Shown here in pieces: positions 6,346 to 34,331 of a DNA stretch of 64,000 nucleotides. The DNA lies in NCBI GenBank assembly GCA_963727505.1, contig CAVSGP010000006.1, positions 160,001-224,000 of the forward strand, given 5' to 3'. Every line of letters starts with the position of its first letter. Position 1 is the stretch's first letter. This DNA is from an uncultured Trueperaceae bacterium (lineage in GTDB: Bacteria > Deinococcota > Deinococci > Deinococcales > Trueperaceae). The translations under genes were made by a program, and so were the position numbers. A model generated the notes under the pieces. The model was not told where the DNA came from. It worked only from the letters and a program-made list of their open reading frames with translations, and did no database searches.

Positions 6346-8025
6346 GTGTTGCGACCGTTCGGAACTCGGAATCGACGCCCAGCTGTCAGCCGTCTTCCCG
6401 TCCAGATTGTGGTCTCGGCGCTCGCGGTGGCAGCCCTCGCGCCTGTCGTATCGGCGCAGGCGTCTCCCACGGCATCGCAGCCGCCGAGTGAGCACGTGAT
6501 CTCCGCGGACGAGACGGTCGTCGACACCGACGCCGGCAGGTTGATGGGGGCTCGCTACGAGGGCATCTATGACTTCCGCGGTGTTCAGTACGCGCAAGCC
6601 GAGCGCTTCATGCCGCCCGAACCAGTGACGCCTTGGGATGGGATCAAGCCCGCCGTGCACTACGGGCAGAACTGCCCGGTCCCACCGATGACGTCGGTGG
6701 CCAACGGGGAGTTGTTCAATCCGCATCGCTACCTGCCGGAGAGCGAGGATTGCCTGTTCCTGAACGTATGGACGCCCGGCATCAACGACGGCGTCAAGCG
6801 CCCAGTCATGGTGTGGATCCATGGCGGTGGGTTCACGAACGGCTCGGGCATCGAGCAGGTCGTGTACGACGGCCACAACCTCAGCAAGCGGGGGGACGTG
6901 GTCGTCATCTCCCTGAATCACCGGCTCAACGTACTGGGCTTCCTCGACCTGTCCGCCTACGGTCCTGCCTACAGGTACTCCGGCAATGTGGGCATCATGG
7001 ATCTGGTTGCTGCGCTTCAGTGGGTGCACGACAACGTCGCGGCGTTCGGCGGCGATCCCGACAGCGTGACGATCTGCGGGCAGTCGGGCGGCGGCGCGAA
7101 GGTCGCGGCGCTCATGGGCGACCCGGCGGCCGAGGGGCTGTTCGAGAAGGGCATCGTTGAGAGCGGCGTCTGGGGCACTCTGTTCGCCGATCAGGCTTCT
7201 GCGCACCTGGTGGCGAAGTACACACTGCAGAATCTCGGGCTGACCGGTGATCAGGTCGATCGGTTGCGGGCTATCTCCTACGGCGAGCTCCTCGCTGCAG
7301 GGACGAAGGCCTTGACGCAGGTCGCCGATGCTGGGGCGGGGAGCTCGCGTTGGACTCCGGTGCTGGATGGGGATTACTTCCCTGTCATCCCGATCGGCGA
7401 TGCTTGGGCTCCTCAGGCGAAGGACATCCCGCTTCTGATCGGCAACGTCCTGAACGAGTTCCAGACGATCGTCACGAAGGATCCGGGGGACCTCTTCGCT
7501 GACAACAAGGATGATTGGAGCAACCAGAAGGTTCGCGAGATGTTGGCGAAGCGCTTCGGTGACAAAGCGGATGCGGTGGCGAAGGCGTTCCTCGCGGCCT
7601 ATCCGAACAAGACGCTCGCGGACGCCTACTTCCTGGACACGCTGTTCCGGCCGGGAACGATCCTCTGGGCGGACGCGAAGGCGCGACAGGGCGGAGCTCC
7701 GGTCTACAGCTACATGTTCACCAAGGAGTCACCGGTGATGGGCGGGATTGGCATGGCGTACCACTGCTCCGAACTGCCGTACGTGTTCGACAACGTTGGG
7801 TTGGTCCCGCAAGCGACCGGGGGAGACGCCGCAGCGTTCGCGCTGGCGGACAAGGTGAGTTCGGCCTGGGTGAACTTCGCTCGCGCCGGGAATCCCAGTG
7901 CCAGGGGTCTTCCTGATTGGCCGGCGTATACCTTGGGCACCAGGGCGACGATGATCCTGGACGACGTCAACCGGGTTGCCGACGATCCTGACGGGGCGTT
8001 GATGAAGGCAGCCGGCGCCCTCTGA
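6346..8025 (+). CDS. Secreted type-B carboxylesterase/lipase (PnbA-like)
   Basis: SEDCLFLNVW, WIHGGGF oxyanion hole, GQSGG nucleophile, YHCSEL His; signal-like segment ending VSA-QA. Start uncertain. Confidence 0.92.
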   Translation: MLRPFGTRNRRPAVSRLPVQIVVSALAVAALAPVVSAQASPTASQPPSEHVISADETVVDTDAGRLMGARYEGIYDFRGVQYAQAERFMPPEPVTPWDGIKPAVHYGQNCPVPPMTSVANGELFNPHRYLPESEDCLFLNVWTPGINDGVKRPVMVWIHGGGFTNGSGIEQVVYDGHNLSKRGDVVVISLNHRLNVLGFLDLSAYGPAYRYSGNVGIMDLVAALQWVHDNVAAFGGDPDSVTICGQSGGGAKVAALMGDPAAEGLFEKGIVESGVWGTLFADQASAHLVAKYTLQNLGLTGDQVDRLRAISYGELLAAGTKALTQVADAGAGSSRWTPVLDGDYFPVIPIGDAWAPQAKDIPLLIGNVLNEFQTIVTKDPGDLFADNKDDWSNQKVREMLAKRFGDKADAVAKAFLAAYPNKTLADAYFLDTLFRPGTILWADAKARQGGAPVYSYMFTKESPVMGGIGMAYHCSELPYVFDNVGLVPQATGGDAAAFALADKVSSAWVNFARAGNPSARGLPDWPAYTLGTRATMILDDVNRVADDPDGALMKAAGAL

Positions 8026-8228
8026 ATCGGAGCAGGTAGCGCCGGGCGGCGGGGGCCGGCGGTGCTGAAGCGGGTCGAATGGATCGAAGGACGGTTTCGG
8101 TCGACCATCGCGACGTCTGGCCGGCCGGCTTGAGGTCGGCCGGCGTTCGGGAGGTTGCGGGCACCGTTCCTGACAATGGAGCGGGCCGGCCACGAGGGCC
8201 GGCCCGCAAGCACGAGCGCGCGTGTGGC

Positions 8229-9686
8229 TCAGGGTTTGAAGACGAGGTAGCGGTAGTTGGTTTCGTCGGCGACGATCAACGCCTGGTCGGTCAGGAGGAA
8301 CCCTGCCGGGTAGTAGAGCGTGCGCGCGGTGGGGGTGCCGGCCGTGTTTGTCTGGCCGTCGTCGTTCTCGGTGACGTGCGTGAAGTCACTCTGGCCGAGC
8401 ACGTGAGCGGCGCTGGCGCCGTTCGTCGTGGGGATGCCGTCGAAGATCAGCACGCGGTTGTTGTCCGCATCGGCGACGAAGAGCTGGTTGCCGTTGCTCG
8501 CGAGGAAGTATGGAGTGTACATCCCGGCTGCGCCGGCAGCGGAAGCGTTGCTGGTCATGTCGGGCTGACCCACGACCACGTCGGCGGGCTGGGAGTTGCT
8601 GGTGGGGAAGGTGTTCCAGATCAGGACCCGGTTGTTGGCCTGATCAGCCACGATGAGGCGGGTGCCGTCCGACCAGACATCGCTCGGGTAGTCCAGCGTC
8701 GCGGCGGTGGCGTTGGTGCTATCGCTGCCGGCGCCGGCGTTCGCGTAGCAGCTGGTGAAGCTGCTCTGACCGAGCACGAGGTCGGGGGTGGCGCCGTTGC
8801 TGGTGGGGATGCTGTTGTAGATGAGCACCCGGTTGTTGTCGCTGTCGGCGACGATGAGCTTGCCGTTCACCGTGAAGATGCTCTCCGGGTCGTAGAGGCC
8901 CGTGGCGCTGCATGCGTTACCGCTGTTGCCGAAGGCGGTCTGGCCGACGACGAGGTCCGCCGGCGCCTGGGTAGTGGTCGGCACCGTGTTCCAGATGAGC
9001 ACGCGGTTGTTACTGTATTCGTCCACGAGCAGTTTACCGCCCGCGCTCATCACGGTCTGTGCCCCGTCCATGCCATCGGCGGTCGAGCTGGTGGCGGACG
9101 AGGTCAGGTTGGCCTGGCCGAGCACGAAGTCGGCACTGGCGCCGTTGCTGGTCGGGATGCCGCTCGAGAAGCCGAGCACCCGGTCGAAGCCATAGTCAGG
9201 GAGGTACAGCACGCCGTTGACGAGTGCCGGGTTGCCGTAGGGGTCCCCCACCGACGTCGCGGTCGCCGAGCCGGCTGCGGTGTTGGTGGACATGTCGGGT
9301 TGTCCGATGACCACCGAAGCGTTCTGGAAGTCGGTAAAGCTGAGGAAGGGGTAGACCAGGGTGAGCGTGATGGTCGAGGTACCGGCCCCCGAGGTGGCGG
9401 TGACCACGATGCTGTTGCTGCCGTCGGCCAGCGTGAGCGGTGCACTGAAGCTACTGCTGGTGTGGGTCGTGCCGCTGACGGCCGCGCCGTTGAGCTTCAC
9501 GCTCACGGCCGTGGCGGGACCGCCGCTGAGGGTGCCGGCGAGCGTCAGGCTGCGGCTCCCGACGATGCGTTGGCCGTCGGTGTTGGATGTCACGCTGATG
9601 GACACTTTGCTCGACGTCGAACAGCCGGCCAAGACCAGGGCCAATCCGAGAAGGGAAGCGTAGGCGAGTAGTTTCGGTCGCATCAT
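8229..9686 (-). CDS. Lipoprotein with Ig-like domain and NHL-like beta-propeller repeats
   Basis: Lipobox LAGC; Ser/Thr-rich Ig-like segment; about 5-6 repeats of ADxxNNRVLIxNxxPTxNGxxADxVxGQxDF; GGAGG RBS. Confidence 0.82.
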   Translation of the reverse strand: MMRPKLLAYASLLGLALVLAGCSTSSKVSISVTSNTDGQRIVGSRSLTLAGTLSGGPATAVSVKLNGAAVSGTTHTSSSFSAPLTLADGSNSIVVTATSGAGTSTITLTLVYPFLSFTDFQNASVVIGQPDMSTNTAAGSATATSVGDPYGNPALVNGVLYLPDYGFDRVLGFSSGIPTSNGASADFVLGQANLTSSATSSTADGMDGAQTVMSAGGKLLVDEYSNNRVLIWNTVPTTTQAPADLVVGQTAFGNSGNACSATGLYDPESIFTVNGKLIVADSDNNRVLIYNSIPTSNGATPDLVLGQSSFTSCYANAGAGSDSTNATAATLDYPSDVWSDGTRLIVADQANNRVLIWNTFPTSNSQPADVVVGQPDMTSNASAAGAAGMYTPYFLASNGNQLFVADADNNRVLIFDGIPTTNGASAAHVLGQSDFTHVTENDDGQTNTAGTPTARTLYYPAGFLLTDQALIVADETNYRYLVFKP

Positions 9687-9947
9687 ATGTTGCCTCCAGA
9701 ACGCACGTTTTCGGCATGCTAGCATCCTCGGGGGCGCGGCTCGAAGGATCGAGGAATCACTCCCTGCCGAAGTGCCTGAATTGTGAGTGTTCCCTCACTT
9801 CAAGATTCGACCCCCGGTGCGACAGGGCGTCTCTAGATGAGCACTCTCCATGGATGTGCTGATCGAAGGAGCTCACCAGGCAGAGCCTCGAGCACATTGG
9901 GCCGCGCGTCGGGCGCCGCGACGGGTGCCGCGACACCCGCAGCGGCC

Positions 9948-11207
9948 TCAGTAGAGCAGTGCCAGCGCCGAGGGATCCTCCACCAGCTCCAGCAGCCGGT
10001 CGGCCCACGCCGCCGCCGCGCCGAGCTCGACGCGGGAACGGTCGAACGCCAGGCGCAGGGTCAGCGCGGTACGGACCTCCGGAGCGCCGTTGACGGCGAG
10101 GACGCGTTCGGCCAGCCTTCCAGCGACCAGGCTCACGACGCCCTCGTGCGGCGCGCTCTCGCCGGACAGCTCGGTGCGAGCGCGGGTGAGGTCGAGCAGC
10201 GAGAGCGCGGGAACGGATCCCGTCTCCGCCGGCCCGGCATCCCGCGCGGCAGCAGCCTCCCTTGCGCTCACGACGGCGGTCAGGCCGGCCGATGCGGCGT
10301 CTTCGAGGTGTGCGTCGCTCAGGGTGCCGTCTGCCACGCGGCGGTATCGCAGGCCGTGCGGGGTGCCTGCGTGGGTTTCGACCAGCGGGTTGCGCGCCCA
10401 CACGGCGGCCAGGAACCGCGCCAGCAGGTCGCCGACGTCGACCCCCGCGGTTTCGCCCGCCCCGCCTGTCGGCGTCCGGCTTTGCGCCCAGGCCACGACG
10501 GCCAGCAGCGGCGCGGCGTCGACCTCGCGGACGAACTCGGTCCAGCTTCCGGGTGCGCGCGGAACGCCGGCGGAGGTCGGGGAGGGGCGGATACCCCGCT
10601 CCGCCTCGCGCAGCACGTCGGCGGCCAGCACGGCGCCCTCCGGCCCGCTCCCCTCCAGCACGGTCACGTCCAGTCCGCGCTCCGACGCCAGACGCCGCGC
10701 CTTCGGGGACGCCGGGGTGAGGCGGTACGGGCCGGGGCGGTCGCTGGCGGCAGAGGGAGAAGTTCGTTGCGTGCCGGCCATCGCTGGGGTGCGGGTGGTG
10801 GTGGGCGCGCCCGTGGTGGGCGCCCCCGTGGTGGGCGCCCCCGTTCCGGGCTCCAGGGGGCCGTTGGCCCCCGGTCGCGGGGTCCCGGCCGGGGCCCGCT
10901 CGGGCGTGGCGGCGTCCGGTGTGGCGGCGTCCGGCTTTGGGGAGCGCGCGGAGGTATCCGCAGCCTCCCCTTCCGCGAGGATCACCGCGATGACGCTCCC
11001 CACCTTCACCTCGTCACCGGCGGCCGCGGTGACGCGCGCGAGCGTGCCGCTGGCGGGCGCGTCGAGCTCCATGGTGGCCTTGTCGGTCTCGACCTCCATG
11101 ATGGGCTCGCCCTCGTGGACCTGCTCGCCCTCCTGCTTGAGCCAGTTGAGGAGTACGGCGGTGTCCTGGTTCATCCCCAGGACCGGCATGATGACGTCCT
11201 TGGCCAC
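9948..11207 (-). CDS. E2-like lipoyl-carrier protein (lipoyl + E3/E1-binding domain + degenerate acyltransferase domain)
   Basis: Lipoyl motif VETDKAT and PSBD ASPKARRLA...GSGPEGAV are intact. The C-terminus reads LAFDRSRVELG where active E2s have DHRxxDG. Confidence 0.85.
   Translation of the reverse strand: MAKDVIMPVLGMNQDTAVLLNWLKQEGEQVHEGEPIMEVETDKATMELDAPASGTLARVTAAAGDEVKVGSVIAVILAEGEAADTSARSPKPDAATPDAATPERAPAGTPRPGANGPLEPGTGAPTTGAPTTGAPTTTRTPAMAGTQRTSPSAASDRPGPYRLTPASPKARRLASERGLDVTVLEGSGPEGAVLAADVLREAERGIRPSPTSAGVPRAPGSWTEFVREVDAAPLLAVVAWAQSRTPTGGAGETAGVDVGDLLARFLAAVWARNPLVETHAGTPHGLRYRRVADGTLSDAHLEDAASAGLTAVVSAREAAAARDAGPAETGSVPALSLLDLTRARTELSGESAPHEGVVSLVAGRLAERVLAVNGAPEVRTALTLRLAFDRSRVELGAAAAWADRLLELVEDPSALALLY
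10798..10842. repeat. 15-bp tandem repeat x3 (GAPTT) in the E2 linker
   Basis: GTGGTGGGCGC(G/C)CCC repeated three times. Confidence 0.85.
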
Positions 11208-11246
11208 GGCTCTCCTCTCGGGTCTAAGCGGGGCGCCTGGCGCGCA

Positions 11247-12629
11247 TCAGTGCTTGCCGTCCGGCCCGACGGCACCGGTGTCGGCGACGACCGGCGTGCC
11301 GGGCACGCCGGGCTTGCCTTCGGGGAAGATGCGGCCGTTGTTGTAGTTCGACTCGGTCTCCCGGATGCCGGGGAGGTCTCCGAGGGCGGTGTAGTACTTG
11401 GGCCCGGCGACCATGAGGTCCTCGGCGGGGAAGCGGCTGATGATCTCGCAGCCGTCCTTGGTCACCACCAGCTCCTCCTCGATGCGGGCGGCGGACCAGC
11501 CATCGCTGGCGGGCCAGAAGGTCTCGAGCGCGAACACCATGCCTTCTTCGATGACCTCGGGGTGGTCGAAGGAGAACAGGCGGCTGAAGATGGGCTTCTC
11601 CCAGATGTTGAGGCCGAGACCGTGGCCGTACTGCAGGGCGAAGGCGAGCTCTTCGTTGGGGAAGCCGAACTCCTGGGCCTTGGGCCAGATCGACACCACC
11701 TCGGCGGTGGTGACGCCGGGCTTGATGAGGCTGATGGCGTGGTCGAGCAGGTCGCGGCACTTGGCGTAGGCGTCGACCTGCGCCTGGCTGGCGCTGCCGA
11801 CGGCGAAGGTGCGGTAGTAGCAGGTGCGGTAGCCCATGTAGCTCTGCAGGATGTCGAAGTAGGCGGGATCGCCGGGGCGCAGCATGCGGTCGGACGCCAC
11901 GTGCGGGTGGGGGTTGCAGCGCTCGCCGCTGATGGCGTTGACGCCCTCGACCATCTCGCTTCCGTTCCGATACAGGAAGTCGCTGACGAGTCCGACCAGT
12001 TCGTTCTCGCGGACACCCGGGCGGAGGTGCTCGTAGAGATGGTCGTAGGCGGCGTCGACCATGCCCGCGGCGTGCGTGAGCAGGCTGATCTCGTCGACGG
12101 TCTTGATCTTGCGCGCCTCCAGCATGAGCTGCTGACCGTCGATGACGGTGATGCCCGCCTTCTGCAGGGCGAACAGCACCGGCGGCTCGACGATGTCGAT
12201 GGCGACGGGGTCGCCGGCGAGGCCGCGCTGGTCGAGCTCGTCCTTGATCCAGCGCGCCACCTTCTCGGCGCGGCCCATCTCGGGACTGATGGTGCCGCGC
12301 AGCATGGAGACGCCGGGGCGCGAGCGCTTCTCGCCGTCGAGCCACGGGGCGTAGAGCTGGTGGTGCTTGGCCGCCGAGCCGAAGTCCCACAGGATGGGTT
12401 CGTCGCCCTGCGGCAGCAGCGTGAAGCGCGCCACCTTGTCCTGCGCCCAGGTGCCGATGTGGGTGCTGGTGATGTAGCGGACGTTGTTCATGTCGAAGCA
12501 CAGCAGCGCTCCGGCCTCGGACTCTGCCAGTACCTTCTTGATGCGTGCCAGTCGTTCCGTGCGGAGGCGCTCGAAGTTGATGCGCTCCTCCCAGTCGACC
12601 GCCATGACGCCGTGTGTGTGAATGGCCAT
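11247..12629 (-). CDS. M24 (pita-bread fold) hydrolase, Xaa-Pro peptidase superfamily
   Basis: Creatinase-N-like ALLCFDMNNVRY; ARKIKTVDEI; YFD..., GYRTCYYRT, GHGLG, ALETF and RIEE motifs; GGAGG RBS before ATG 12629. Confidence 0.85.
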   Translation of the reverse strand: MAIHTHGVMAVDWEERINFERLRTERLARIKKVLAESEAGALLCFDMNNVRYITSTHIGTWAQDKVARFTLLPQGDEPILWDFGSAAKHHQLYAPWLDGEKRSRPGVSMLRGTISPEMGRAEKVARWIKDELDQRGLAGDPVAIDIVEPPVLFALQKAGITVIDGQQLMLEARKIKTVDEISLLTHAAGMVDAAYDHLYEHLRPGVRENELVGLVSDFLYRNGSEMVEGVNAISGERCNPHPHVASDRMLRPGDPAYFDILQSYMGYRTCYYRTFAVGSASQAQVDAYAKCRDLLDHAISLIKPGVTTAEVVSIWPKAQEFGFPNEELAFALQYGHGLGLNIWEKPIFSRLFSFDHPEVIEEGMVFALETFWPASDGWSAARIEEELVVTKDGCEIISRFPAEDLMVAGPKYYTALGDLPGIRETESNYNNGRIFPEGKPGVPGTPVVADTGAVGPDGKH

Positions 12630-12675
12630 CAGGAATCCGCCTCCCTCGTAAGGGGTCTGTTGCGCTCCCGGCGAA

Positions 12676-13695
12676 TCAGCCGGGCAGGCACATCTCGCGC
12701 GCGAGCGCGGTGAGCTGCTTCGGGGTGGGGACGGTGACGTCCTCGAGGACGGGGGAGAAGGGCACGGGCACGTCCATCGCCCCGAGCCGGCGAACCGGCG
12801 CATCGAGGTAGTAGAACGCGCCGTCGGCGATGACGGCGGCGAGCTCGGCACTCGCGCCGTAGCTGCGGTGCCCTTCGTCGACCACCACGACCCGGCCTGT
12901 CTTGCGGGCCGAGTCGATGAGGGTGTCTGCGTCGAGCGGGGCGAGCGAGCGCGGGTCGACGACCTCGGCGGAGATGCCGTGGGCCTCGAGTTGTTCGGCC
13001 GCCTGCAGTGCGACCAGGACCATGCTGCTGGTGGCAACGAAGGTGATGTCGGTGCCCTGGCGCTTGATGTCGGCCTGCCCGAGCGGGATGAAGACGTCAC
13101 CCTCGGGGACGGGCCCCTTGTCCTGGAAGCTGAGCTTGTCCTCGATGATGACGACGGGGTTGTCGTCGCGGATGGCGGCCTTCATGAGGCCCTTGGCGTC
13201 GTAGGGCGTGGCGGGCAGCGCCACCTTCAGGCCGGGGACGTGGCTCACCCAGGCGTGGAGGCTCTGGCTGTGCTGGGCGGCGCTGCGCCTGGTGGCGCCG
13301 AGGGTGGTCCGGAGGACCATCGGCACCTTGAGCTTGCCGCCGGACATGTAGTGGGTCTTGGCGGCCTGGTTCACGAGCTGATCCATCACCAGCGTCAGGA
13401 AGTCGCCGAACATGAGGTCGACCACCGGGCGCATGCCGGTCATGGCGGCGCCGACGGCCAGGCCGGTGAAGCCGGCCTCGCTGATGGGGGTGTCGCGGAC
13501 GCGTTCGGGACCGAACTCCTCGACGAGCCCCGAGAGCACCTTGAAGGGGGTGCCGGCCTCGGCCACGTCTTCGCCCAGGATGAAGACGCTGGGGTCGCGG
13601 CGCATCTCCTCGGCGAGCGCCTCGTTCACGGCCTGGGAGAAGGTGATGGTGCGCGCCTGACTCTCCTCGGAGAGCGTTCGGCTAGGCGTAGACAT
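12676..13695 (-). CDS. ThDP-dependent 2-oxoacid/acetoin dehydrogenase E1 beta subunit
   Basis: LGEDV, RVRDTPISEAGFTG, DQLVNQAAK, AQHSQS and YLDAPV motifs. Confidence 0.92.
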   Translation of the reverse strand: MSTPSRTLSEESQARTITFSQAVNEALAEEMRRDPSVFILGEDVAEAGTPFKVLSGLVEEFGPERVRDTPISEAGFTGLAVGAAMTGMRPVVDLMFGDFLTLVMDQLVNQAAKTHYMSGGKLKVPMVLRTTLGATRRSAAQHSQSLHAWVSHVPGLKVALPATPYDAKGLMKAAIRDDNPVVIIEDKLSFQDKGPVPEGDVFIPLGQADIKRQGTDITFVATSSMVLVALQAAEQLEAHGISAEVVDPRSLAPLDADTLIDSARKTGRVVVVDEGHRSYGASAELAAVIADGAFYYLDAPVRRLGAMDVPVPFSPVLEDVTVPTPKQLTALAREMCLPG

Positions 13696-14722
13696 GCAGC
13701 GTGACCTCGCTCTCGTCGGGGTAGGGGGCGTCGAGTCCGAACGACACCGCTTCGTCGGCTTCGGCGCGGACCTCGGTCTCCACCGTTTCGAGCTCCGCGG
13801 CGGTGGCGATCCCCTGCTCCTGCAGCCAGGTGGCGTACAGGGTGAGGGGGTCGCGTTCGCTCTTCCAGTGCGACTCCTCGTCCTTGGAGCGGTAGTAGTC
13901 GCGCTGGATGTCGCCGACGTGGTGCCCGTAGTAGCGGTAGGTGTGCGCCAGCAGGAACGAGGGTCCGTCGCCTTTGCGGGCGCGCTCGACCAGCTCGTGG
14001 GCCACGGTGCTCACGGCGGTGACGTCCTGGCCGTCGACTTCGGCGGTGTGGATGCCGAAGGCGCGCGGCCGGTCGAGGATGGCGCCGGCGGTGGTCTCCT
14101 CGAAGTGGGTGTATTCGTTGTAGAGGTTGTTCTCGCAGACGTAGATGACGGGGAGCTTCCAGAGCTGTGCCATGTTCATGACCTCGTAGAGCAGGCCCTG
14201 GCCGAGCGCGCCCTCCCCGAAGAAGCACACCGCCACCCGGTCGGTGCCCTGCAACCTGGCCGACAGCGCCGCGCCGGTGGCGATGCCTGCCGAGCCGCCG
14301 ACGATGGCGTTGGCGCCGAGGTTGCCGTTCTCCTGGTCGGCGATGTGCATGCTGCCGCCCTTGCCGCGGTTGTAGCCGGCGGCCTTGCCCAGCAGCTCGG
14401 CGAACATCAGGTCGAGCCGGGCGCCCTTGGCGATGCAGTGGCCGTGACCGCGGTGGGTGCTGGTGATGTAGTCCTCGCGGGTCAGGGCGTCGCATACGCC
14501 GACGGCGACGGCCTCCTCGCCGGCATACATGTGCGTGAGGCCGGGCATCTTGGCGGTGAGGTAGAGGTCGTTGGCGTGCTCCTCGAACACGCGGATGCGC
14601 ATCATCTGGCGGTAGGTGAAGAGGTGGCGCGGGGGGTCGGCATCGGCGGATACTCCGGCCCCCGGTGCCTTCCCGCCCGCCTTGGGATTCGTCGGCTTGT
14701 TCGCTGTGGATCGACCCGTCAC
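13682..14722 (-). CDS. ThDP-dependent 2-oxoacid/acetoin dehydrogenase E1 alpha subunit
   Basis: THRGHGH, GKGGSMH, GANAIVG, FFGEGA...ENN (variant GDG motif) and TYRYYGHH motifs. GTG 14722 has an AAGGAG RBS; alternative start 14788. Confidence 0.92.
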   Translation of the reverse strand: MTGRSTANKPTNPKAGGKAPGAGVSADADPPRHLFTYRQMMRIRVFEEHANDLYLTAKMPGLTHMYAGEEAVAVGVCDALTREDYITSTHRGHGHCIAKGARLDLMFAELLGKAAGYNRGKGGSMHIADQENGNLGANAIVGGSAGIATGAALSARLQGTDRVAVCFFGEGALGQGLLYEVMNMAQLWKLPVIYVCENNLYNEYTHFEETTAGAILDRPRAFGIHTAEVDGQDVTAVSTVAHELVERARKGDGPSFLLAHTYRYYGHHVGDIQRDYYRSKDEESHWKSERDPLTLYATWLQEQGIATAAELETVETEVRAEADEAVSFGLDAPYPDESEVTLHVYA

Positions 14723-14774
14723 GCAGTGCTCCTTCCCCGTGGAGCGGTACCCGGTCGGGGCCGCGGTTGGCGGC

Positions 14775-15524
14775 TCAGGCGGCGTCACCGTCCAGCTCGT
14801 CTTCGCGATCGTCGGCTTTCCGTTTCGTCTTCTCGAGCGCCAGCCGGCTGTCCTCGCGCACCTGTGCGAGGTGGGCCAGCATCGCGCTCCTGGCGGCGTC
14901 CGCGTCCCCGGCCTCGATGGCGACGAGGAGGGTGCGGTGGTGGCGCTGGCCGCGCATCGGGCCTCCGCTCACCTGGAAGATGTGCCCACGCAGCTCCTGC
15001 AGAAGGTCCACCACCGAATCGAGCAGGCGGGGGACGAAGTGGTTCTGGGTAGCGACGGCGAGCGCGATGTGGAAGCGGTTGTCCGCCTCGATGAAGGTCT
15101 TGGCGTCGTCCAGCGCGTCGTCCATGTCGTGGACGGCGGCGCGCAGGACCTCGAGATCGGCAGCGGTCCGGCGGAGCGCGGCGCGGGCGGCGATCTCGGG
15201 CTCGAGCAGCTCCCGAACTTCGACCATCTCCTCGGCCCGTTCCTCGGACGCGAACCCCATCATGAGCCGCAGCGACTGCTTCAGCGCGTTGACGGTGCCG
15301 TCGACGACGAACGTGCCCTGGCCGCGGCGTACCTCGACCAGGCCGTTCTGGATGAGCGTCTTCATGGCCTCGCGGATGACGGTCCGGCTGACGCCGTAGC
15401 GCTCCCCCAGGCTACGCTCGTTGGGCAGCTGGTCCCCACTGGTCAACTCGCCAGAGAGGATCAATTGGCGAATCCTCTCCACGACCTGTTCGTAGAGCTT
15501 GCGGTGTTGAAGCACATCCGTCAT
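14775..15524 (-). CDS. GntR/FadR-subfamily transcriptional regulator
   Basis: wHTH GDQLPNERSL...GVSRTVIREA...RRGQGTFV; FCD domain RELLE, DNRFH, QNH and HLA. Confidence 0.94.
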   Translation of the reverse strand: MTDVLQHRKLYEQVVERIRQLILSGELTSGDQLPNERSLGERYGVSRTVIREAMKTLIQNGLVEVRRGQGTFVVDGTVNALKQSLRLMMGFASEERAEEMVEVRELLEPEIAARAALRRTAADLEVLRAAVHDMDDALDDAKTFIEADNRFHIALAVATQNHFVPRLLDSVVDLLQELRGHIFQVSGGPMRGQRHHRTLLVAIEAGDADAARSAMLAHLAQVREDSRLALEKTKRKADDREDELDGDAA

Positions 15525-15560
15525 ATTGTAAACCCATGCATAAGATGCAATCTCTTGCAG

Positions 15561-15581
15561 GAGGTATGGTGGTAATACCTC
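15561..15581. promoter_or_regulatory. Putative FadR-type operator O1 (module A)
   Basis: GAGGTAT-GGTGGTA-ATACCTC inverted repeat; one of four copies of a shared 21-bp motif. Confidence 0.7.
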
Positions 15582-15596
15582 TTTTGGAATGGTGCG

Positions 15597-15678
15597 AACC
15601 TAGCACGCCTCCGAGCGCTCTGTCAAGAATTTTCGAGGGCTCGAGGGGTTTGACACACCCCCTCTGTTGTGCTAACGT
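15597..15678. promoter_or_regulatory. Back-to-back sigma70 promoters (module A)
   Basis: Plus: TTGACA(15650)-17-TAACGT with TGn. Minus: TTGACA(15626-15621)-18-TAGGTT with TGn. Confidence 0.8.
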
Positions 15679-15807
15679 TGGCCGCGTCCACAACTTGATT
15701 CTGTAGGTCTTGCGATTCCTTGCGAGCCGAGCCGATCCCCCGCCGAGGAGCGGGGCGCCGGCGCAACCAAAGGGGTGGTCCAGGCGCCCGAAGCGATTCT
15801 TACCGTC

Positions 15808-15843
15808 CGGTGGTATGACCACCACACCACTAATAGTTATCGA
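15808..15843. promoter_or_regulatory. Putative FadR-type operator O2 block (module A)
   Basis: CGGTGGTATGACCACCACACCACTAATAGTTATCGA; core TGGT-N3-ACCA; 35/36 identical to 32791-32826. Confidence 0.72.
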
Positions 15844-15950
15844 GCGCGTGTTCGCGTGTCCGGAGGGGCAGGGGCCACCGCTCGCGCCGTCGCACGGGCA
15901 AGCGAGTGCGCGTGCCGCATGGTCTCGCACCGCGTGGAGGAGAACCTGAC

Positions 15951-16829
15951 ATGGCAAGAATAGGATTCGTGGGCCTCGGGGTGATGGGCGGCCGCGTGGC
16001 CAAGCGACTGCTGGACGCGGGGCACACCGTCACGGGTTACAACCGTACGCGTTCGAAGGCGCGCTGGCTGGAGGACGCCGGCGTGGCCTGGGGCGACACT
16101 CCCCGGGCGGTCGCCGAGGCATCCGACGTCGTGTTCACCATGGTGACCAACACGACCGCCCTGGAGGCCGTGACACAGGGCGAGGACGGCGTGCTCGCTG
16201 GGCTCGCTCCGGGCAAGATCTACATCGACATGAGCACGGTCAGCCCGGCCTATAGCCAGGGACTCGCCGCGCAGGTCAAGGAGCGTGGCGCCACCATGCT
16301 CGACGCGCCGGTGTCCGGCAGCGTGGAGACGCTCGAGCAGGGCAAGCTCACCTTCATGGTGGGCGGCGAGCGCAGCGACTTCGAGAAGGTAGAGCCCATC
16401 CTGCTGGACGTGGGCCCGAAGGCGACCCACGTCGGCGCCAACGGCCTGGCGGTCACCATGAAGATCGCCACCAACCTGAGCCTGGCCGTGCAGATGCTGG
16501 CCTTCAGCGAGGGCCTGTTGCTGGCCGAGCGTAGCGGGATCAAGCGGGAGACGGCCGCCGAGGTGCTGCTCAACAGCGTCATCGCGTCCCCGATGGTCAA
16601 GTACCGCGGCCCCTTCGTCCTCCAGATGCCGGAGGAGGCCTGGTTCGACGTCAACATGATGCAGAAGGACATGAACCTCGCCCTCGAGCTGGGCCAGGAG
16701 GTCAACGTGATGCTCCCCACCACGGCCGCGACCAACGAACTGCTGACCGCCGCCCGCGGGCTGGGGCTCGACAAGCAGGACTTCGCCATCGTCTTCGAGG
16801 TGCTCGCGCGCCTCTCCGGGGGGAGCTGA
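15951..16829 (+). CDS. Beta-hydroxyacid dehydrogenase (3-hydroxyisobutyrate/tartronate semialdehyde reductase family)
   Basis: IGFVGLGVMG, YNRT, DMSTVSP, DAPVSG and MKIATN (catalytic Lys) motifs. Confidence 0.92.
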   Translation: MARIGFVGLGVMGGRVAKRLLDAGHTVTGYNRTRSKARWLEDAGVAWGDTPRAVAEASDVVFTMVTNTTALEAVTQGEDGVLAGLAPGKIYIDMSTVSPAYSQGLAAQVKERGATMLDAPVSGSVETLEQGKLTFMVGGERSDFEKVEPILLDVGPKATHVGANGLAVTMKIATNLSLAVQMLAFSEGLLLAERSGIKRETAAEVLLNSVIASPMVKYRGPFVLQMPEEAWFDVNMMQKDMNLALELGQEVNVMLPTTAATNELLTAARGLGLDKQDFAIVFEVLARLSGGS

Positions 16830-16833
16830 GTCG

Positions 16834-18324
16834 ATGGCCGCCGAGAGGCTGCGCCGCGATTCGGGAGAACGCCGGGAAGCCGCCGCCGGGGGGCAACCCA
16901 GGCTGGGCGAGTTCGGTTGCTACGTCGCCGGCCAGTGGGTGCGTACCGGCGACCGGCTGGAGGTGCTCAGCCCCTTCGACGGCAGCCTGGCGGCCGTGGT
17001 GCACCGGGCCGGCCCGGAGCAGATCGAGGCGGCCATCGCGCAGGCCACGGCGGCGTTCGAGACTACCCGGCACATGCCGGTGTGGAAGCGCTCGGAGGCG
17101 CTGGAGGCGATCAGCGCCGGTATCCGGGAGCGCCGCGAGGACCTCGCGCAGACCATCGCCCTGGAGGCCGGCAAGCCGGTCGCGGCGGCGCGTGGCGAGG
17201 TCGACCGGGCGGTGTTCACCTTCAAGGTCGCGGCCGAGGAGGCCAAGCGCATCTACGGTGAGATCGTGCCGCTCGACTGGATCCCCGGTCTGGAGGGACG
17301 CGAGGCACAGGTACGCCATGTCCCGCTGGGCCCGGTGGCGGGCATCAGCCCCTTCAACTACCCGCTGAACCTGGTGGCGCACAAGGTCGCGCCGGCGCTG
17401 GCCGCCGGTGACGCCATCGTGCTGCGCCCCGCCAGCCAGACGCCGCTGAGCGCGCTGAAGCTCGCCGACATCGTGCAGGGATCCGGTTTCCCGGACGGCG
17501 CCTTCAGCGTCGTGCCCAGCCGCACGGCCGACGCCGCGCCGCTCGTCGAGGACGAGCGTATCCGGCTGCTGACGTTCACGGGCAGCCCCGCGGTGGGCTG
17601 GTCGCTCAAGAGCCGGGCCGGACGCAAGCGCGTCACGCTGGAGCTCGGCGGGAACGCCGGCGTCATCGTGCACGCCGATGCCGACGTGGCGTACGCAGCG
17701 GAGCGCGTGGTCTGGGGAGGGTTCCAGTACTCGGGCCAGTCGTGCGTATCGGTGCAGCGCGTGTACGTGCACGAGGACGTATACGACGCATTCCGGGACG
17801 CGCTCGTGCCGCAGGTGGAAGCGTTGAAGCTGGGCGACCCCCTCGACGAGGCGACCGACGTCGGCCCCGTCATCGATGCCGACGCCGCCGAGCGGATCGA
17901 GGCGTGGGTGCGTGAGGCCACCGAGGGCGGCGCCCGCCTGCTCGCCGGTGGTGCCCGCCAGGGCAATCTGTGGCCGCCGACGGTGCTGGAGGACGTCACG
18001 CCGGCGATGAAGGTATGCAACCAGGAGGTCTTCGCGCCCATGATCGGGCTGTACCGCTACGCCGACGTGCACGAGGCGATCGACGCCGTCGACGCCAGCG
18101 ACTTCGGCTTGCAGGCGGGTCTGTTCACCAACGACTGGCGCGTCATCCGCGAGGCCTTCGACCGCATCGAGGTGGGCGGCCTGAACATCAACGACGTATC
18201 GACGTTCCGCGTCGACCACATGCCCTATGGCGGCGTCAAGCAGTCCGGGGCGGGGCGCGAGGGACTGCGCTACGCCATCCAGGAGATGAGCGAGATGAAG
18301 CTTCTGACGCTCAATCCCAGGTAG
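16834..18324 (+). CDS. Aldehyde dehydrogenase
   Basis: ISPFNYPLNL, FTGS, LELGGN, SGQSCVS (catalytic Cys), EVFAP and PYGGVKQSG motifs. Confidence 0.93.
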   Translation: MAAERLRRDSGERREAAAGGQPRLGEFGCYVAGQWVRTGDRLEVLSPFDGSLAAVVHRAGPEQIEAAIAQATAAFETTRHMPVWKRSEALEAISAGIRERREDLAQTIALEAGKPVAAARGEVDRAVFTFKVAAEEAKRIYGEIVPLDWIPGLEGREAQVRHVPLGPVAGISPFNYPLNLVAHKVAPALAAGDAIVLRPASQTPLSALKLADIVQGSGFPDGAFSVVPSRTADAAPLVEDERIRLLTFTGSPAVGWSLKSRAGRKRVTLELGGNAGVIVHADADVAYAAERVVWGGFQYSGQSCVSVQRVYVHEDVYDAFRDALVPQVEALKLGDPLDEATDVGPVIDADAAERIEAWVREATEGGARLLAGGARQGNLWPPTVLEDVTPAMKVCNQEVFAPMIGLYRYADVHEAIDAVDASDFGLQAGLFTNDWRVIREAFDRIEVGGLNINDVSTFRVDHMPYGGVKQSGAGREGLRYAIQEMSEMKLLTLNPR

Positions 18325-18479: not shown

Positions 18480-19670
18480 ATGTTCAAGAGATTCGTACTC
18501 GTGGTCGCGGCTGCGCTGTTCGCCGTGACGGGCTTGGCGATGGCCCAAGGTCCCATCAAGATCGGGATCTCGCTTCCCCTGACCGGTATGTTCTCGCAAC
18601 CGGGCGGAGCTGCCCAGAAGGGGTACCAGGTCTGGGCCAAGATCGTGAACGACAACGGTGGCCTCCTCGGTCGCCAGGTGCAGCTCGACATCAAGGACGA
18701 CGCCAGCGACCAGAACACCATCGTTTCGGACTACAACCGTCTGATCACACAGGACAAGGTCGACCTCGTGCTCGGCACGTTCTCGTCGCTGCTGAATCTG
18801 CCCGCGTCGGCGGTGGCCGAGAAGTATCGCATGCTCTACGTCGAACCGGCCGGCGGCGCGCCGAAGATGTTCGACCGCGGCTTCCAGTACCTGTTCTTCG
18901 CGCAGCAGGCAACGGCCAACCACCAGGGTGACCAGTTCGTGAAGTGGGTGTTGTCGCTGCCGGCGGACCAGCGGCCCAAGACGGCGGCCTACCCCACGCA
19001 GGACGATCCGTTCACCAAGCCCGTGATCGAAGGCATCCGCACGCAGCTCGAAGCTGCGGGCATCAAGACCGTCTACCAGACCACATATCCGCCCGATACC
19101 TCGAACTTCGACACCATCGCCAGCGCCATCAAGAACAGCGGCGCCGAGCTGGTTGCCGAAGGCGCCGTCTTCCAGGACGGCGTGAGCATCATCCGCTCGT
19201 TCCAGAAGCTGGGGTACAGCCCCAAGGTGTTGTTCGAGACCTCGGCGCCCTCCGAGAGCGAGCAGTTCTCCAGCGGCATCGGGATGGCCAACACCGAGGG
19301 CATCTTCTACGCCGTGAGCTGGAATGCGCAGCTCCCCACCAACATGAACAAGAAGTTCGTCGACACCTATCAACAGATGTTCGGCGCTGGGCAGATCCCG
19401 GCCGAGGACGCGGCCGACGCCTTCGCCACGGCGCAGGTGATGCAGAAGGCGGTCGAGGCCGTGGGATCGCTGGATCAGGCCAAGCTCAAGGACTGGCTGC
19501 ACGCCAACAGTGTCGACACGATTCTCGGCAACCTCTCCTGGGACGAGACCGGCGCGCCGCAATCGGCGTTCCTGCTGGCGCAGTGGCAGAAGGGCAAGGC
19601 GGAGATCGTGTTGCCGCGTGACGTCGCCACCTCGCCGACGATCACCTTCCCGAAGCCTGGATGGCAGTAA
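18480..19670 (+). CDS. Liv/HAAT-type ABC transporter substrate-binding protein (copy 1)
   Basis: Signal peptide; PIKIGISLPLTG...NGGLLGRQVQL...DDAS type I periplasmic-binding pattern. Confidence 0.9.
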   Translation: MFKRFVLVVAAALFAVTGLAMAQGPIKIGISLPLTGMFSQPGGAAQKGYQVWAKIVNDNGGLLGRQVQLDIKDDASDQNTIVSDYNRLITQDKVDLVLGTFSSLLNLPASAVAEKYRMLYVEPAGGAPKMFDRGFQYLFFAQQATANHQGDQFVKWVLSLPADQRPKTAAYPTQDDPFTKPVIEGIRTQLEAAGIKTVYQTTYPPDTSNFDTIASAIKNSGAELVAEGAVFQDGVSIIRSFQKLGYSPKVLFETSAPSESEQFSSGIGMANTEGIFYAVSWNAQLPTNMNKKFVDTYQQMFGAGQIPAEDAADAFATAQVMQKAVEAVGSLDQAKLKDWLHANSVDTILGNLSWDETGAPQSAFLLAQWQKGKAEIVLPRDVATSPTITFPKPGWQ

Positions 19671-19687
19671 GCCCCACCTCGAGGCGT

Positions 19688-19717
19688 GGGCGGGACCCCT
19701 TCCGGGGGGTCCCGCCC
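19688..19717 (+). terminator. Stem-loop after SBP gene (stabiliser or partial terminator)
   Basis: GGGCGGGACCCCT-TCCG-GGGGGTCCCGCCC; no U-tract. Confidence 0.5.
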
Positions 19718-19785
19718 CGCCCTAGAGTTCTCCCGGCGCTCGGCGCCGGCATCCGCGCGCCGACCTCCGGCCGTCGAGGAGACGC

Positions 19786-20667
19786 ATGACACTGTTGGTC
19801 CAGACGATCCTCCTGGGGCTGCTCATCGGGGGGGTCTACGCCCTGTTCGCGTCCGGTCTCACCCTGGTGTTCGGGGTGATGGGAATTGTCAACGTCGCGC
19901 ATCCGGCGTTCCTGGTGCTCGCCGGATTGTTCACCTACGAGCTGTGGTCGCGCCTCGGCATCGATCCGTTGCTGCTCACCGTGGTCACGACCCCGTTGAT
20001 GTTCGCTCTGGGCTGGTTGGTCTACAAGGGGCTCATCGCGAGGGTGCGCTCTGGACCGGTCTCGATGTCGGTGGTGTTGACCTTCGGCCTGGCCATCGCG
20101 CTCGAAGGCGCCATGGGCATGACGTGGGGGAACCGCTTCTTTTCCGTCACGCCCCCCTATTTCAACCAATCGTTCCACCTCGGGGTGCTGGTGCTACCCA
20201 AGGCCCAGGTCTTCGGCTGCATCGCTTCCGTGGTGGTCCTGTTGCTGCTCTATCTGTTGCTGACGCGCACCTGGGTCGGACGGGCGATCCGCAGCGCTTC
20301 GGAGAACCCGGAAGGCGCCCATCTCGTTGGCATCGACATCGGCACGGTGGCCGCCCTGACGTTCGCCATAGGCGCCGCCACGGCCGGCGTGGGCGGGTCC
20401 GTGATGGCCATCATGTACCCGATCTTCCCGGCCTCCCAGTACGTGTGGATCTCCCGCACCCTCGGCATCATCGTGCTGGGTGGCATGGGGAGCCTTCCCG
20501 GCGCCGTGGTGGGGGCGCTGATCCTGGGCGCCGCCGAGACCCTGACGGCCACCTACATCTCCACGCAGTGGGCGGTGGTGGTCTTCTACCTCGTCATCCT
20601 GGTGGTGCTCATGGTGCGGCCGGAGGGATTGATGGGCGCCCGGGTCCGGAAGGACGTGGTGGCATGA
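19786..20667 (+). CDS. Liv-type ABC permease (LivH-like)
   Basis: GLTLVFGVMGIVNVAH, GRAIRS and IVLGGMGSLPG motifs. Confidence 0.92.
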   Translation: MTLLVQTILLGLLIGGVYALFASGLTLVFGVMGIVNVAHPAFLVLAGLFTYELWSRLGIDPLLLTVVTTPLMFALGWLVYKGLIARVRSGPVSMSVVLTFGLAIALEGAMGMTWGNRFFSVTPPYFNQSFHLGVLVLPKAQVFGCIASVVVLLLLYLLLTRTWVGRAIRSASENPEGAHLVGIDIGTVAALTFAIGAATAGVGGSVMAIMYPIFPASQYVWISRTLGIIVLGGMGSLPGAVVGALILGAAETLTATYISTQWAVVVFYLVILVVLMVRPEGLMGARVRKDVVA

Positions 20668-22523
20668 CCGGCTCCCCGAAGCCGGCGGCGGCACGCCGAT
20701 CCGTCCTCACCTGGCGTAACGCGCTGTTTGCGGTGGCGGGTCTGGCCCTCGTCGCCTACCCGCTGGTGCGGCCAGGCGATCAGTACCAGCAGACCGTGCT
20801 CATCCTCATCTTCTTGCTCGGTGTGATGGCGACGGGCTGGAACGTCATCGCCGGCTTCACCGGCTACGTGTCGCTGGGGCAGAGCGCCTTCCTGGGGCTG
20901 GGCGCATATACCGTCGGACTGCTGACGCGCGTCGTGCATGTCTCGCCGTTCCTCCTGGCGCCGCTCGGCGGCATCGTGGCGGCGCTGGTGGCGGCGCTGC
21001 TCGGCTCGACCATCATGCGCACCCGCGAACACGCCTACGTCATCATCACCATCGCCTTCCTGTTCCTCATGCAGGCCATCGGTCTGAACGCCCCCGGGTT
21101 CACCGGCGGTTCCGATGGCATCACGCTTCCGCTCCCCCCATGGGGGCTCGGCATCGGCAACATGCCGTTCTACTACGCACTGTTCGGCCTCATGCTGCTG
21201 TCGGTCCTGATGACGTGGTGGATCCGCCGTACCAAGTTCGGCATGGGGCTTGTGGCGATCCGTGAGGACGAGGACAAGGCGGCGGCCATCGGCGTGCGGA
21301 CCAGCGTCTACAAGATCCTGGCCACCATCGCCAGCGGCGTGCTCATCGGCGTGGCCGGCGGCGTGTACGCCTACTTCCTGACGTTCATCGATCCGCGAGG
21401 CATGTTCGCGATCCTGGTCAGCGTACAGATCGTCCTCGCGACCCTCATCGGGGGTTTGGGGAGCATCTGGGGGCCGGTCCTGGGCGCGTTCCTGGTGGTG
21501 CCCATGAACGAGGTCACCAACGGCATCGTGGCCGCTCAGGGTGTCCACCTGTTCGTGTTCGGGCTGGTGCTCATGGCGGTCGTGATGTTCCTGCCGCGGG
21601 GACTCCTCCCCACCGTGCGCGGCTGGGTGGATCGCCGACGTGGCACCACTGTCGCGTTCGAACGCAGGCAGAGCGTGCCGAAGGTGGTGGAGCTGAGCGC
21701 CCCACCGGCGGCCGCCGCGCAGGGTCGATGGGCCGGTCGCAGCGACCGCACCCGTCCGCTGCTCGAGATCGATGGGTTGGTGAAGCGCTTCGGTGGCATC
21801 ACCGCCGTGGACGACTGCTCGTTCAGCGTCGCCGAGGGCAGCCTGACCGGCCTCATCGGCCCCAACGGGTCGGGCAAGACCACGGTGTTCAACCTCGTCA
21901 GCGGGATGATGCGCGCCAACGAGGGCTCCATCCGGCTGGACGGCGAGCGGATCGATGCGCTGCAACCCTGGGACCGGGCGTACCGCGGGCTGGGGCGCAC
22001 CTTCCAGAGCACCCGGCTCTTCCCCAAGCTGACCGTGATGGAGAACGTGGTGGCGCCGCTGAAGAGCTTCCAGTGGAACCTGCTGCCGGCCGACGCCGTC
22101 AGCGGACCCGAGGCCCGGCGGGGGATGGAGCTGCTCGACTTCGTGGGGCTGGCGGACTTCGGGCAGCAGCCCGCGTGGCAGCTCTCCTTCGGGCAGAAGA
22201 AGCTGGTCGAGCTGGCGCAGCTCCTCATGCTCGAGCCCCGCCTGATCCTGCTCGACGAGCCGGCAGGCGGCATCAACCCCGGCCTGATCGAGCGCATCTC
22301 CGACACCATCCGTGCGCTCAACAAGCAGGGCCTCACCTTCGTGATCGTGGAGCACAACATGCCGATGGTCCTCGACCTGTGCGATTCGATGCTGGTGATG
22401 GCGCGCGGCAGCGTCATCGCGAAGGGGAGCCCCGACGAGATCCAGAGCAACCCAGTAGTGCTCGACGCCTACCTGGGCGAGGACTGGAACCGCGAGGCCG
22501 AGCTCGAGGAGGCGAGGGCCTGA
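20664..22523 (+). CDS. Fused Liv-type permease-ATPase (LivM-LivG-like)
   Basis: ATGA overlap with previous gene. N-half has [10 protein letters not shown] and [10 protein letters not shown]-half has [13 protein letters not shown] and LLDEP, all in one open frame. Confidence 0.88.
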
Positions 22524-25309: not shown

Positions 25310-25349
25310 GCGTGCGAGTCCATCGCTCCATGACGCGGAGGGTGCCGGC

Positions 25350-32545: not shown

Positions 32546-32566
32546 GAAGTATGGTGGTCATACCTC
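32546..32566. promoter_or_regulatory. Putative FadR-type operator O1 (module B)
   Basis: GAAGTATGGTGGTCATACCTC; 19/21 identical to 15561-15581. Confidence 0.7.
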
Positions 32567-32790: not shown

Positions 32791-32826
32791 CGGTGGTATG
32801 ACCACCACACCACGAATAGTTATCGA
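32791..32826. promoter_or_regulatory. Putative FadR-type operator O2 block (module B)
   Basis: CGGTGGTATGACCACCACACCACGAATAGTTATCGA. Confidence 0.72.
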
Positions 32827-33111
32827 ACATGTTGTCATTTCCGGGACCCGAGGCGCGCTCAAGCGCCCGGGCGCCGCCTGGTTGCGCGCGCCCGTCCCTT
32901 GCAGGCCGCTCCGCGGCCCTGGTCCGGTGTGTCCTCTCTGGAGGTGTTCGCTCCCGGCATGGCAGCCGCCCACCGCTTCGCGGTGCGGTCCTCCATGCGG
33001 ATCGAGGAGGTGGGCGCTCCAACCTGACCGGGCGCGCCGAGCGTACGTGGGGTCCGCCCGACGTGCCGCCCAGAACACCTTGGCATCACGTGCTTGCCCA
33101 TGGAGGCAGAC

Positions 33112-34311: not shown

Positions 34312-34331
34312 GGTGAGGACCTACGGGTTCC

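Follow-up and report, generated by a model that had tools for sequence, protein, structure and literature searches.

An E2-like protein with a lipoyl domain and without acyltransferase residues in a dehydrogenase operon of Trueperaceae

We analysed a stretch of 64,000 nucleotides (nt; below, the window) with about 70% G+C on contig CAVSGP010000006.1 of an uncultured Trueperaceae bacterium (genome of 3.26 Mb). Its minus strand carries an operon for a thiamine diphosphate (ThDP)-dependent dehydrogenase complex, in which the place of the dihydrolipoyl acyltransferase (E2) is taken by an E2-like protein whose catalytic domain is degenerate. The genes of this operon, in order of transcription, and the parts of the E2-like protein are as follows.

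14775..15524, minus strand: regulator of the GntR/FCD family (Pfam GntR and FCD), the first gene of the operon, with a 14-nt overlap with the start of E1alpha
13682..14788, minus strand: E1alpha, the ThDP-binding subunit of a heterotetrameric dehydrogenase component (E1) of the pyruvate dehydrogenase (PDH)/acetoin type (PF00676, E 9.3e-76)
12676..13695, minus strand: E1beta (Pfam Transket_pyr and Transketolase_C), with a 14-nt overlap with E1alpha
11247..12629, minus strand: M24 "pita-bread" enzyme of 460 amino acids (aa), DddP-like with an N-terminal domain (PF00557, E 8.5e-38)
9948..11207, minus strand: the E2-like protein, a predicted pseudo-acyltransferase of 419 aa (Pfam, structure model, hhalign)
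10980..11198, minus strand: its lipoyl domain, residues 4-76 (PF00364, Biotin_lipoyl, E 6.9e-17), the codon of the lipoyl-Lys43 lying at 11079-11081
10611..10715, minus strand: its peripheral-subunit-binding domain (PSBD), residues 165-199 (PF02817, E3_binding, E 7.7e-10)
9951..10556, minus strand: its degenerate catalytic-fold core, residues 218-419 (AlphaFold2 model, Foldseek, hhalign, homotrimer model)
10020..10043, minus strand: remnant of the DHRxxDG motif, D389-G396 (alignment to canonical E2s)

The best NCBIfam model for E1alpha is TIGR03182 (329.9 bits, cut-off 393.85), and its nearest solved chain is human PDH E1alpha (190 bits), while E1beta exceeds the cut-off of NF006667 (390 bits, cut-off 321). 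The M24 gene starts with the ATG at 12629, which has GGGAGG upstream. A scan of positions 9500-16000 for promoters and terminators gave no usable signal.

The translation of the E2-like protein contains ETDKAT at residues 40-45, FDRSRVELG at residues 388-396 and the string LLELVEDP. The original prediction, made from the letters of the stretch, had described an intact lipoyl-Lys motif and PSBD, and the Pfam matches and the translation bear this out. It had further described a divergent C-terminal domain that reads DRSRVELG for the catalytic motif DHRxxDG and keeps LLELVEDP in an open frame, and this description also stands: the acyltransferase profile PF00198 gives no Pfam match to the protein even at E <= 0.1, and a scan of the whole genome with PF00198 finds four other E2 genes, all with DHR in the motif, and not the gene in the operon. 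In an hhalign comparison with these four canonical E2s (probability 100%), FDRSRVEL lies opposite FDHRVVDG, the catalytic His being replaced by Arg and the Gly of the motif by Leu. The catalytic Ser/Thr of the second motif, T-I-[ST]-N-L-G (S-I-T-N-I-G in the alignment), is Leu. The core comprises about 202 residues; canonical E2 cores have about 230.

NCBIfam models cover the N-terminal half of the protein only, and a sequence search against solved structures matched only the lipoyl and PSBD parts, so the fold of the core was taken from a model. The AlphaFold2 model, built from 17 orthologues, has predicted local distance difference test (pLDDT) values of 85-96 in most 10-residue blocks of residues 218-419, and in Foldseek the core matches the E2 catalytic cores 6zzn, 3l60, 1c4t and 7q5r (E ~1e-12, TMt 0.6-0.71). 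Alignment and model, both of which had been proposed as checks, thus give an E2 fold with Arg at the position of the catalytic His. Among the features of an active E2, the protein has the D-K-A of the lipoyl domain, the PSBD and a fold like that of chloramphenicol acetyltransferase (CAT); it lacks a match to the PF00198 profile, the catalytic His (and the Asp/Gly of DHRxxDG) and the catalytic Ser/Thr. As far as sequence can tell, this confirms the protein as a pseudo-enzyme that has no acyltransferase residues and retains the swinging lipoyl arm. A three-copy model of the core gave a trimer score of 0.44, the best control reaching 0.00; this mark was attained by 20 of 30 solved pairs and by 1 of 23 single chains. 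At least 92% of the contacts agree between runs, and the pLDDT of the partner is at least 76. Because solved E2 trimers exist, this result may reflect likeness only; the modelled core is folded and probably trimeric.

The loss of the catalytic residues is not peculiar to this genome. A search with residues 210-419 retrieved only 8 proteins among 8000 candidates scored, none of them with the His, and among 61 related genomes the full-length protein is confined to the family to which the window belongs. All ten relatives' loci have the order GntR, E1alpha, E1beta, M24 and E2-like gene, with identities to the window of 84-96% for M24, 77-94% for E1beta, 67-90% for E1alpha and 31-87% for the E2-like protein. 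In a search of the whole phylum, the M24 gene was found in 23 of 364 Deinococcota genomes, all from one family and 10 genera (the genome of the window and 22 of the 127 family genomes; 0 of 236 in five other families). A complete E2 is present in 18 of these 23 genomes, and DHRxxDG in none of the 18. When 14 Trueperaceae orthologues are aligned, 12 have no His in the motif column and 13 have no Ser/Thr in the other. In a FastTree phylogeny the 14 Deinococcota proteins form one clade (SH-like support 100), which is sister to the canonical E2s found in the corresponding operons of Chloroflexota and Acidobacteriota. The observation of a single clade that is sister to canonical E2s indicates that the catalytic site was lost once. 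The phylogeny thereby shows what we read as a single loss in the ancestor of the Trueperaceae carriers, that is, a trait of the lineage. Decay of this one copy, a candidate we considered, is ruled out, as 18 of 18 orthologues share the same loss and fall in one clade.

The domains of the E2-like protein have evolved very differently. ETDKA is invariant in all 17 aligned sequences and is also kept in the seven complete E2-like proteins that were read; in the ASPKARRLA string of the PSBD, A-S-P-K-A and L-A are invariant among the 17, and both Arg are almost so. Within the core, the same 17 sequences share no polar residue that is invariant or close to it. Compared with the canonical E2s of the same type of operon, identity is 42-54% in the lipoyl domain, 47-64% in the PSBD and 17-34% in the core; canonical E2s from different phyla share 52-68%, 42-49% and 51-55% with each other in these domains, and within the family the E2-like proteins share 60-78% in the lipoyl domain and 21-38% in the core. 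For the closest pair, Nei-Gojobori ratios of non-synonymous to synonymous divergence (dN/dS), which are rough and unreliable at a third-position G+C content (GC3) near 0.9, are 0.26 for the lipoyl domain, 0.14 for the PSBD and 0.165 for the 202 codons of the core. The frame is open to a conserved C-terminal D-P-x-x-L tail in all 18 complete copies; together with the closest-pair ratio of the core, this suggests that the core has been kept. The comparisons show a domain-specific relaxation, with lipoyl domain and PSBD conserved to the degree seen in active E2s and a fast-evolving core. The constraint on lipoyl domain and PSBD fits a lipoyl carrier or scaffold, and together with the loss conserved throughout the family it sustains the corresponding proposal of the original prediction.

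The operon belongs to a widely distributed module. Probing one genome per prokaryotic species with the M24 alignment gave at least 599 matching stretches, and the best 80 loci were examined; they come from Acidobacteriota (the majority), Deinococcota, Chloroflexota, Spirochaetota, Verrucomicrobiota, Actinomycetota and Rhodobacteraceae. The usual gene order is GntR, hydroxyacid dehydrogenase, E1alpha, E1beta, M24 and E2. All 10 relatives' loci, and most of the 80 from the wider search, have a GntR gene ahead of E1alpha; the hydroxyacid dehydrogenase lies directly before E1alpha in other phyla and is transcribed divergently in the window. DHRxxDG is present in 52 of the 69 E2 frames that adjoin M24. 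The other 17 consist of 11 Deinococcota frames, four truncated at the end of a contig, one that terminates behind the binding domain (locus L063) and one that reads DHRILYG (L089). In an alignment of 70 sequences, T-[ILV]-[ST]-N-L-G and DHR are found in all 52 complete E2s of the module from outside Deinococcota.

Whether syntenic orthologues lack the His, as the original prediction asked, thus has two answers: within Trueperaceae they do (12 of 14 aligned), whereas in other phyla the E2 is canonical (52 of 52). The prediction was to fall if syntenic orthologues kept DHRxxDG and this copy were decaying. Syntenic orthologues at a distance do carry the motif, and the core shows relaxation; within the family, however, the motif is missing from every orthologue, and the gene has been retained.

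The original prediction had also noted an M24 gene between E1beta and E2 and no dihydrolipoamide dehydrogenase (E3) in the window, which the gene map, TIGR01350 and tblastn corroborate: matches to TIGR01350 lie on other contigs, tblastn gives no match in the window at E <= 1e-5, and the genome encodes two bona fide E3s elsewhere. No E3 gene was found in any of the 80 loci by tblastn with the genome's own E3, nor in five annotated loci from other phyla. The M24 insertion and the missing E3 are common to modules with canonical E2s and are therefore not linked to the dead E2; reliance on a housekeeping E3 is the norm in this module. The proposal that M24, missing E3 and dead E2 form one non-canonical machine is accordingly not upheld, as M24 stands beside a canonical E2 in 52 complete modules and E3 is absent from 80 loci.

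The M24 enzyme scores 104 bits against the DddP model NF043017 (cut-off 600), and in the ESM Atlas it falls among unnamed "Peptidase M24" clusters only. Alignments to 1pv9, 3q6d and 4b28 give D259, C270, H336, E369 and E384 as putative metal ligands, with Cys at position 270 where prolidase and DddP have the second Asp. The string GYRTCYYR could be checked in 67 of the 80 orthologues and is present in every one of them; the remaining 13, which lack the anchor string, were left unread. Between phyla other than Deinococcota, M24 is 83-96% identical, and 69-74% identical when these are compared with Trueperaceae. The former value, seen across Acidobacteriota, Chloroflexota, Spirochaetota and Verrucomicrobiota (loci L053-L121, at ~7001-8300 in each), exceeds that of E1alpha and suggests that the constraint is very strong, that the module has recently spread by horizontal transfer, or both. 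The presence of the same M24 beside canonical E2s suggests a pathway enzyme of the module and not a stand-in for E2 catalysis. In the genome of the closest relative (locus L032, G003:C4, ~9140-10520; also L144/L145) the M24 gene falls into two frames around residue 213, owing either to a frameshift or to an error of assembly.

Replacement of E2 catalysis by M24 or by a carboxylesterase was also considered and rejected as the main reading, as M24 occurs just as regularly beside canonical E2s and the esterase lacks conserved synteny. The latter is the alpha/beta hydrolase to which the original prediction had given a possible role; its gene (6346-8025, plus strand) is convergent with the operon and is not syntenic outside the closest relative.

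Divergently from the operon, the plus strand of the window carries genes that recur in the module elsewhere, and the intergenic region holds two operator-like sites.

15906..16829, plus strand: beta-hydroxyacid dehydrogenase, similar to 3-hydroxyisobutyrate dehydrogenase (HIBADH) and tartronate-semialdehyde reductase (Pfam; TIGR01505 at 216 bits, below cut-off), divergent
16834..18324, plus strand: aldehyde dehydrogenase (ALDH) (Pfam; nearest model lactaldehyde dehydrogenase, below cut-off), divergent
18480..22523, plus strand: LIV-type ATP-binding cassette (ABC) importer (Pfam), with binding protein at 18480-19670 and permease at 19786-20667, divergent
15570..15580, no strand assigned: operator-like TGGT-N3-ACCA site with 2 mismatches to the exact copy (sequence scan)
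15811..15821, no strand assigned: operator-like site with the sequence TGGTATGACCA, within the divergent promoter region (sequence scan)

The second permease and the ATPase of the importer lie inside the long frame that ends at 22523. In an NCBIfam search no model reached its cut-off for the hydroxyacid dehydrogenase, the ALDH, the binding protein or the regulator. In 7 of 11 Deinococcota loci the E2-like gene is followed by an ALDH match that scores 285 bits or more, and in 2 such a match lies in the divergent arm; after the canonical E2s of L053 and L100 the ALDH scores 804-810 bits. The LIV-type importer, with related binding protein and permeases, and an ALDH also occur in module loci of Spirochaetota and Chloroflexota. 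We take the whole to be the Trueperaceae version of a widespread catabolic module of GntR regulator, hydroxyacid dehydrogenase, E1, M24 and E2, often accompanied by ALDH and LIV importer.

The 11-mer TGGTATGACCA, a half-palindrome of the FadR/GntR type TGGT-N3-ACCA, occurs exactly at 15811 and again at 32794-32804, with near copies at 15570-15580 and 32555-32565. Each pair of sites falls into an intergenic region between divergent genes; those flanking the second region are another ALDH (30945-32408, minus strand) and the start of a second LIV-type ABC importer (33094-37824, plus strand). When up to 2 mismatches are allowed, 6 occurrences were observed and 5.5 are expected, which is not above chance; only the two exact copies, with the places where they lie, are suggestive, and the two regions may belong to one regulon.

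A number of other neighbours were observed. In the window, a protein of 498 aa with NHL repeats and a glucodextranase-B-like domain is encoded on the same strand 222 nt after the E2-like gene (8229-9725, minus strand); it has no NCBIfam match and is retained in the closest relative only. A plus-strand cluster at 24356-29167 encodes an amidohydrolase_2 protein, an FAD amine oxidase, an alpha/beta hydrolase and a Creatinase_N plus M24 protein (27974-29167) of ordinary type, unrelated to the DddP-like M24 of the operon. In one subclade of Trueperaceae, adenine-deaminase-like amidohydrolases directly precede the run from GntR through the E2-like gene to ALDH (L048:419-4091 and L050:470-4083, two paralogues each; L051:496-2313, one scanned), and they may hint at a nitrogen-bearing substrate. 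A variant in L077 (Tropicibacter sp., 6986-14862) has a sugar-type binding protein, M24, hydroxyacid dehydrogenase and ALDH, followed by an E1alpha-beta fusion of 731 aa, a protein with a glyoxalase fold and an E2 of canonical type.

How could a complex with such a protein work? We give about an even chance to the reading that the E2-like protein is a lipoyl carrier and scaffold resembling the E3-binding protein (E3BP) of eukaryotes, the acyl group being released by a housekeeping E2 that acts in trans. In this scheme E1 would oxidatively decarboxylate or acyloin-cleave a pathway intermediate and load the acyl group onto the lipoyl-Lys43 of the E2-like protein, which would serve as lipoyl acceptor and docking scaffold for the E1 of the module, as E3BP does in eukaryotes. 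One of the four canonical E2 cores that the genome encodes elsewhere would then discharge the acyl-dihydrolipoyl arm in trans to coenzyme A (CoA), a housekeeping E3 would re-oxidise the arm, and M24 would act on the substrate or an intermediate instead of replacing E2. We infer the lipoylation of the E2-like protein, its loading by E1 and its discharge in trans, and likewise the class of substrate, a small carboxylate or hydroxy-carbonyl compound.

Several observations weigh against this scheme. In more distant pairs, and with the same roughness of the estimates, dN/dS of the core rises to 0.34-0.80 while that of M24 is ~0.1, and much of the core may be nearly unconstrained. Among the 18 orthologues, L051 and L052, from one clade, read E-H-R at the aligned position, and their core is much reduced. 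No compensating acyltransferase or thioesterase gene stands consistently beside the E2-like gene in six annotated Trueperaceae loci. M24 of Trueperaceae is somewhat more diverged than that of the other phyla is among themselves, which leaves room for a shifted role. Finally, in Escherichia coli E2o, according to PMC5986005, the exchange His375Ala costs only 54-fold and His375Trp little. The activity retained by these mutants means that loss of the His alone is no proof of zero activity.

Unlikely, to our minds, is that the acyl-dihydrolipoyl thioester is released without CoA, either hydrolysed, as the original prediction had suggested, or self-cyclising, so that in Trueperaceae the product of the module would be a free acid in place of an acyl-CoA. 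M24 or a different hydrolase would be responsible, or the release would need no enzyme; acyl groups with a hydroxy or amino function in the gamma or delta position are examples of ones that could cyclise by themselves. A core without any conserved polar residue would agree with this, as would the translational adjacency of M24 to the E2-like protein, the 10-20 points by which Trueperaceae M24 is more diverged from the other phyla than these are among themselves, and the ALDH present in Trueperaceae loci. However, an M24 in the same position, with the same putative ligand set including the Cys and at 69-74% identity, stands beside canonical E2s; its core role therefore predates the loss of the E2 site and is independent of it. 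In addition, no thioesterase is conserved beside the E2-like gene (in the window and in six loci), and we know of no M24 enzyme that cleaves thioesters.

Somewhat less probable again is that the E2-like protein is still a slow or unconventional acyltransferase, in which backbone atoms or lineage-specific residues (e.g., Arg390 in this genus) supply the channel and the stabilisation of the oxyanion. The modest contribution of the His in E. coli E2o, ~54-fold and replaceable by Trp (PMC5986005), would allow for this, and the Asp before the lost His is kept (as F/Y-D) in 11 of 14 aligned orthologues, while fold and trimer model are retained. Against it, the His position varies across orthologues (Arg, Pro, Ala, Gly, Ser or Arg-Asp), as does the Ser/Thr position (Leu, Val, Tyr, Ile, His or Asp), the core has no conserved polar residue, core identity within the family is 21-38% as against 60-78% for the lipoyl domain, and some cores are shortened (proteins of 368-386 aa).

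Least probable is a relic on its way out, persisting through polarity or recent loss of function while E1 works without it (by non-oxidative decarboxylation to an aldehyde for the ALDH, or with the lipoyl domain of another complex): the fast-evolving core and the ALDH nearby would suit it, but ETDKA is kept in every orthologue read or aligned and the PSBD motif in the 17 aligned, across 10 genera, lipoyl dN/dS is 0.08-0.41, lipoyl and PSBD identity to active E2s reaches that among active E2s, and complete copies contain no frameshift or stop.

Returning to the carrier and scaffold with release in trans, a more specific version can be put forward only tentatively, and we think it less probable than not: the Trueperaceae protein would be an independently evolved bacterial counterpart of E3BP, loaded by a private E1 and unloaded by the core of another complex, by way of hybrid cores or of lipoyl-arm traffic between complexes. 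If discharge by the E2 of another complex is true, bacterial complexes can have lipoyl arms in common, and in a direction that is the reverse of the one known for corynebacterial OdhA and E2p. To our knowledge, such sharing is otherwise described only in the reverse direction, in Corynebacteriales, or with eukaryotic E3BP. The acyl product would then likely be one that a housekeeping E2 accepts, e.g., acetyl, which narrows the search for the substrate. The module itself occurs at no fewer than 599 places in at least six phyla, with M24 conserved to 83-96% between phyla, and Trueperaceae present a natural experiment in which a single loss of the catalytic site was followed by the retention of lipoyl arm and docking domain in 10 genera. 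A search of the open literature (subscription-only literature lying outside it) found no paper on the module or on a bacterial dead E2; what it gave on E3BP and on the catalytic His concerned the E3BP of eukaryotes or was unrelated.

Among known systems, the closest relatives of the E2-like protein are the canonical E2s of the same module in Acidobacteriota, Chloroflexota, Spirochaetota, Verrucomicrobiota and others, which occupy the same position after M24, have the same layout of lipoyl domain, PSBD and core, and form the sister clade; they differ in keeping T-I-[ST]-N-L-G and DHRxxDG and in their core identity of 51-55% between phyla.

The acetoin dehydrogenase system AcoA/AcoB/AcoC(/AcoL) is alike in its PDH-type E1alpha-beta, a dedicated lipoyl E2, a catabolic operon and an adjoining dehydrogenase for a hydroxy compound, and some Aco operons lack an E3 of their own. 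No Aco equivalog reached its cut-off, however, the E2-like protein matching NF011457 at 78 bits (cut-off 307) in the lipoyl domain only. The module in the window moreover has M24 inserted, and Aco E2s, which are active or carry an alpha/beta-hydrolase-fold domain, have no dead CAT-like core. The nearest named relative of the M24 enzyme is the dimethylsulfoniopropionate (DMSP) lyase DddP, also an M24 protein (4b28, 4rzy, 4s00), to which it aligns over both domains (residues 17-404); DddP has the full Asp/Asp/His/Glu/Glu site, whereas the M24 of the operon has a putative Cys ligand in place of one bridging Asp and a ThDP/lipoyl context instead of DMSP genes.

In eukaryotes, E3BP (protein X) is an E2-derived component of pyruvate dehydrogenase complexes, and the E2-like protein shares its combination of lipoyl domain, PSBD and dead E2-fold core. 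Both derive from an E2 (on E3BP see, e.g., PMC10156792 and PMC7494870). The E2-like protein differs in its independent origin, branching inside the E2 clade of the bacterial module, and in standing alone: its operon has no other E2-like gene and encodes no catalytic E2 as a partner. Judged from this phylogeny, it is an analogue of E3BP and not a member of that group, the two sharing no common descent.

The placement of lipoyl domain and acyltransferase site on different proteins that act in trans has a precedent in the PDH-ODH (oxoglutarate dehydrogenase) supercomplex of corynebacteria and mycobacteria, where OdhA/Kgd borrows the lipoyl domains of E2p. The polarity there is reversed: the supercomplex has a catalytic domain without a lipoyl arm, and the E2-like protein of Trueperaceae a lipoyl arm without a catalytic domain.

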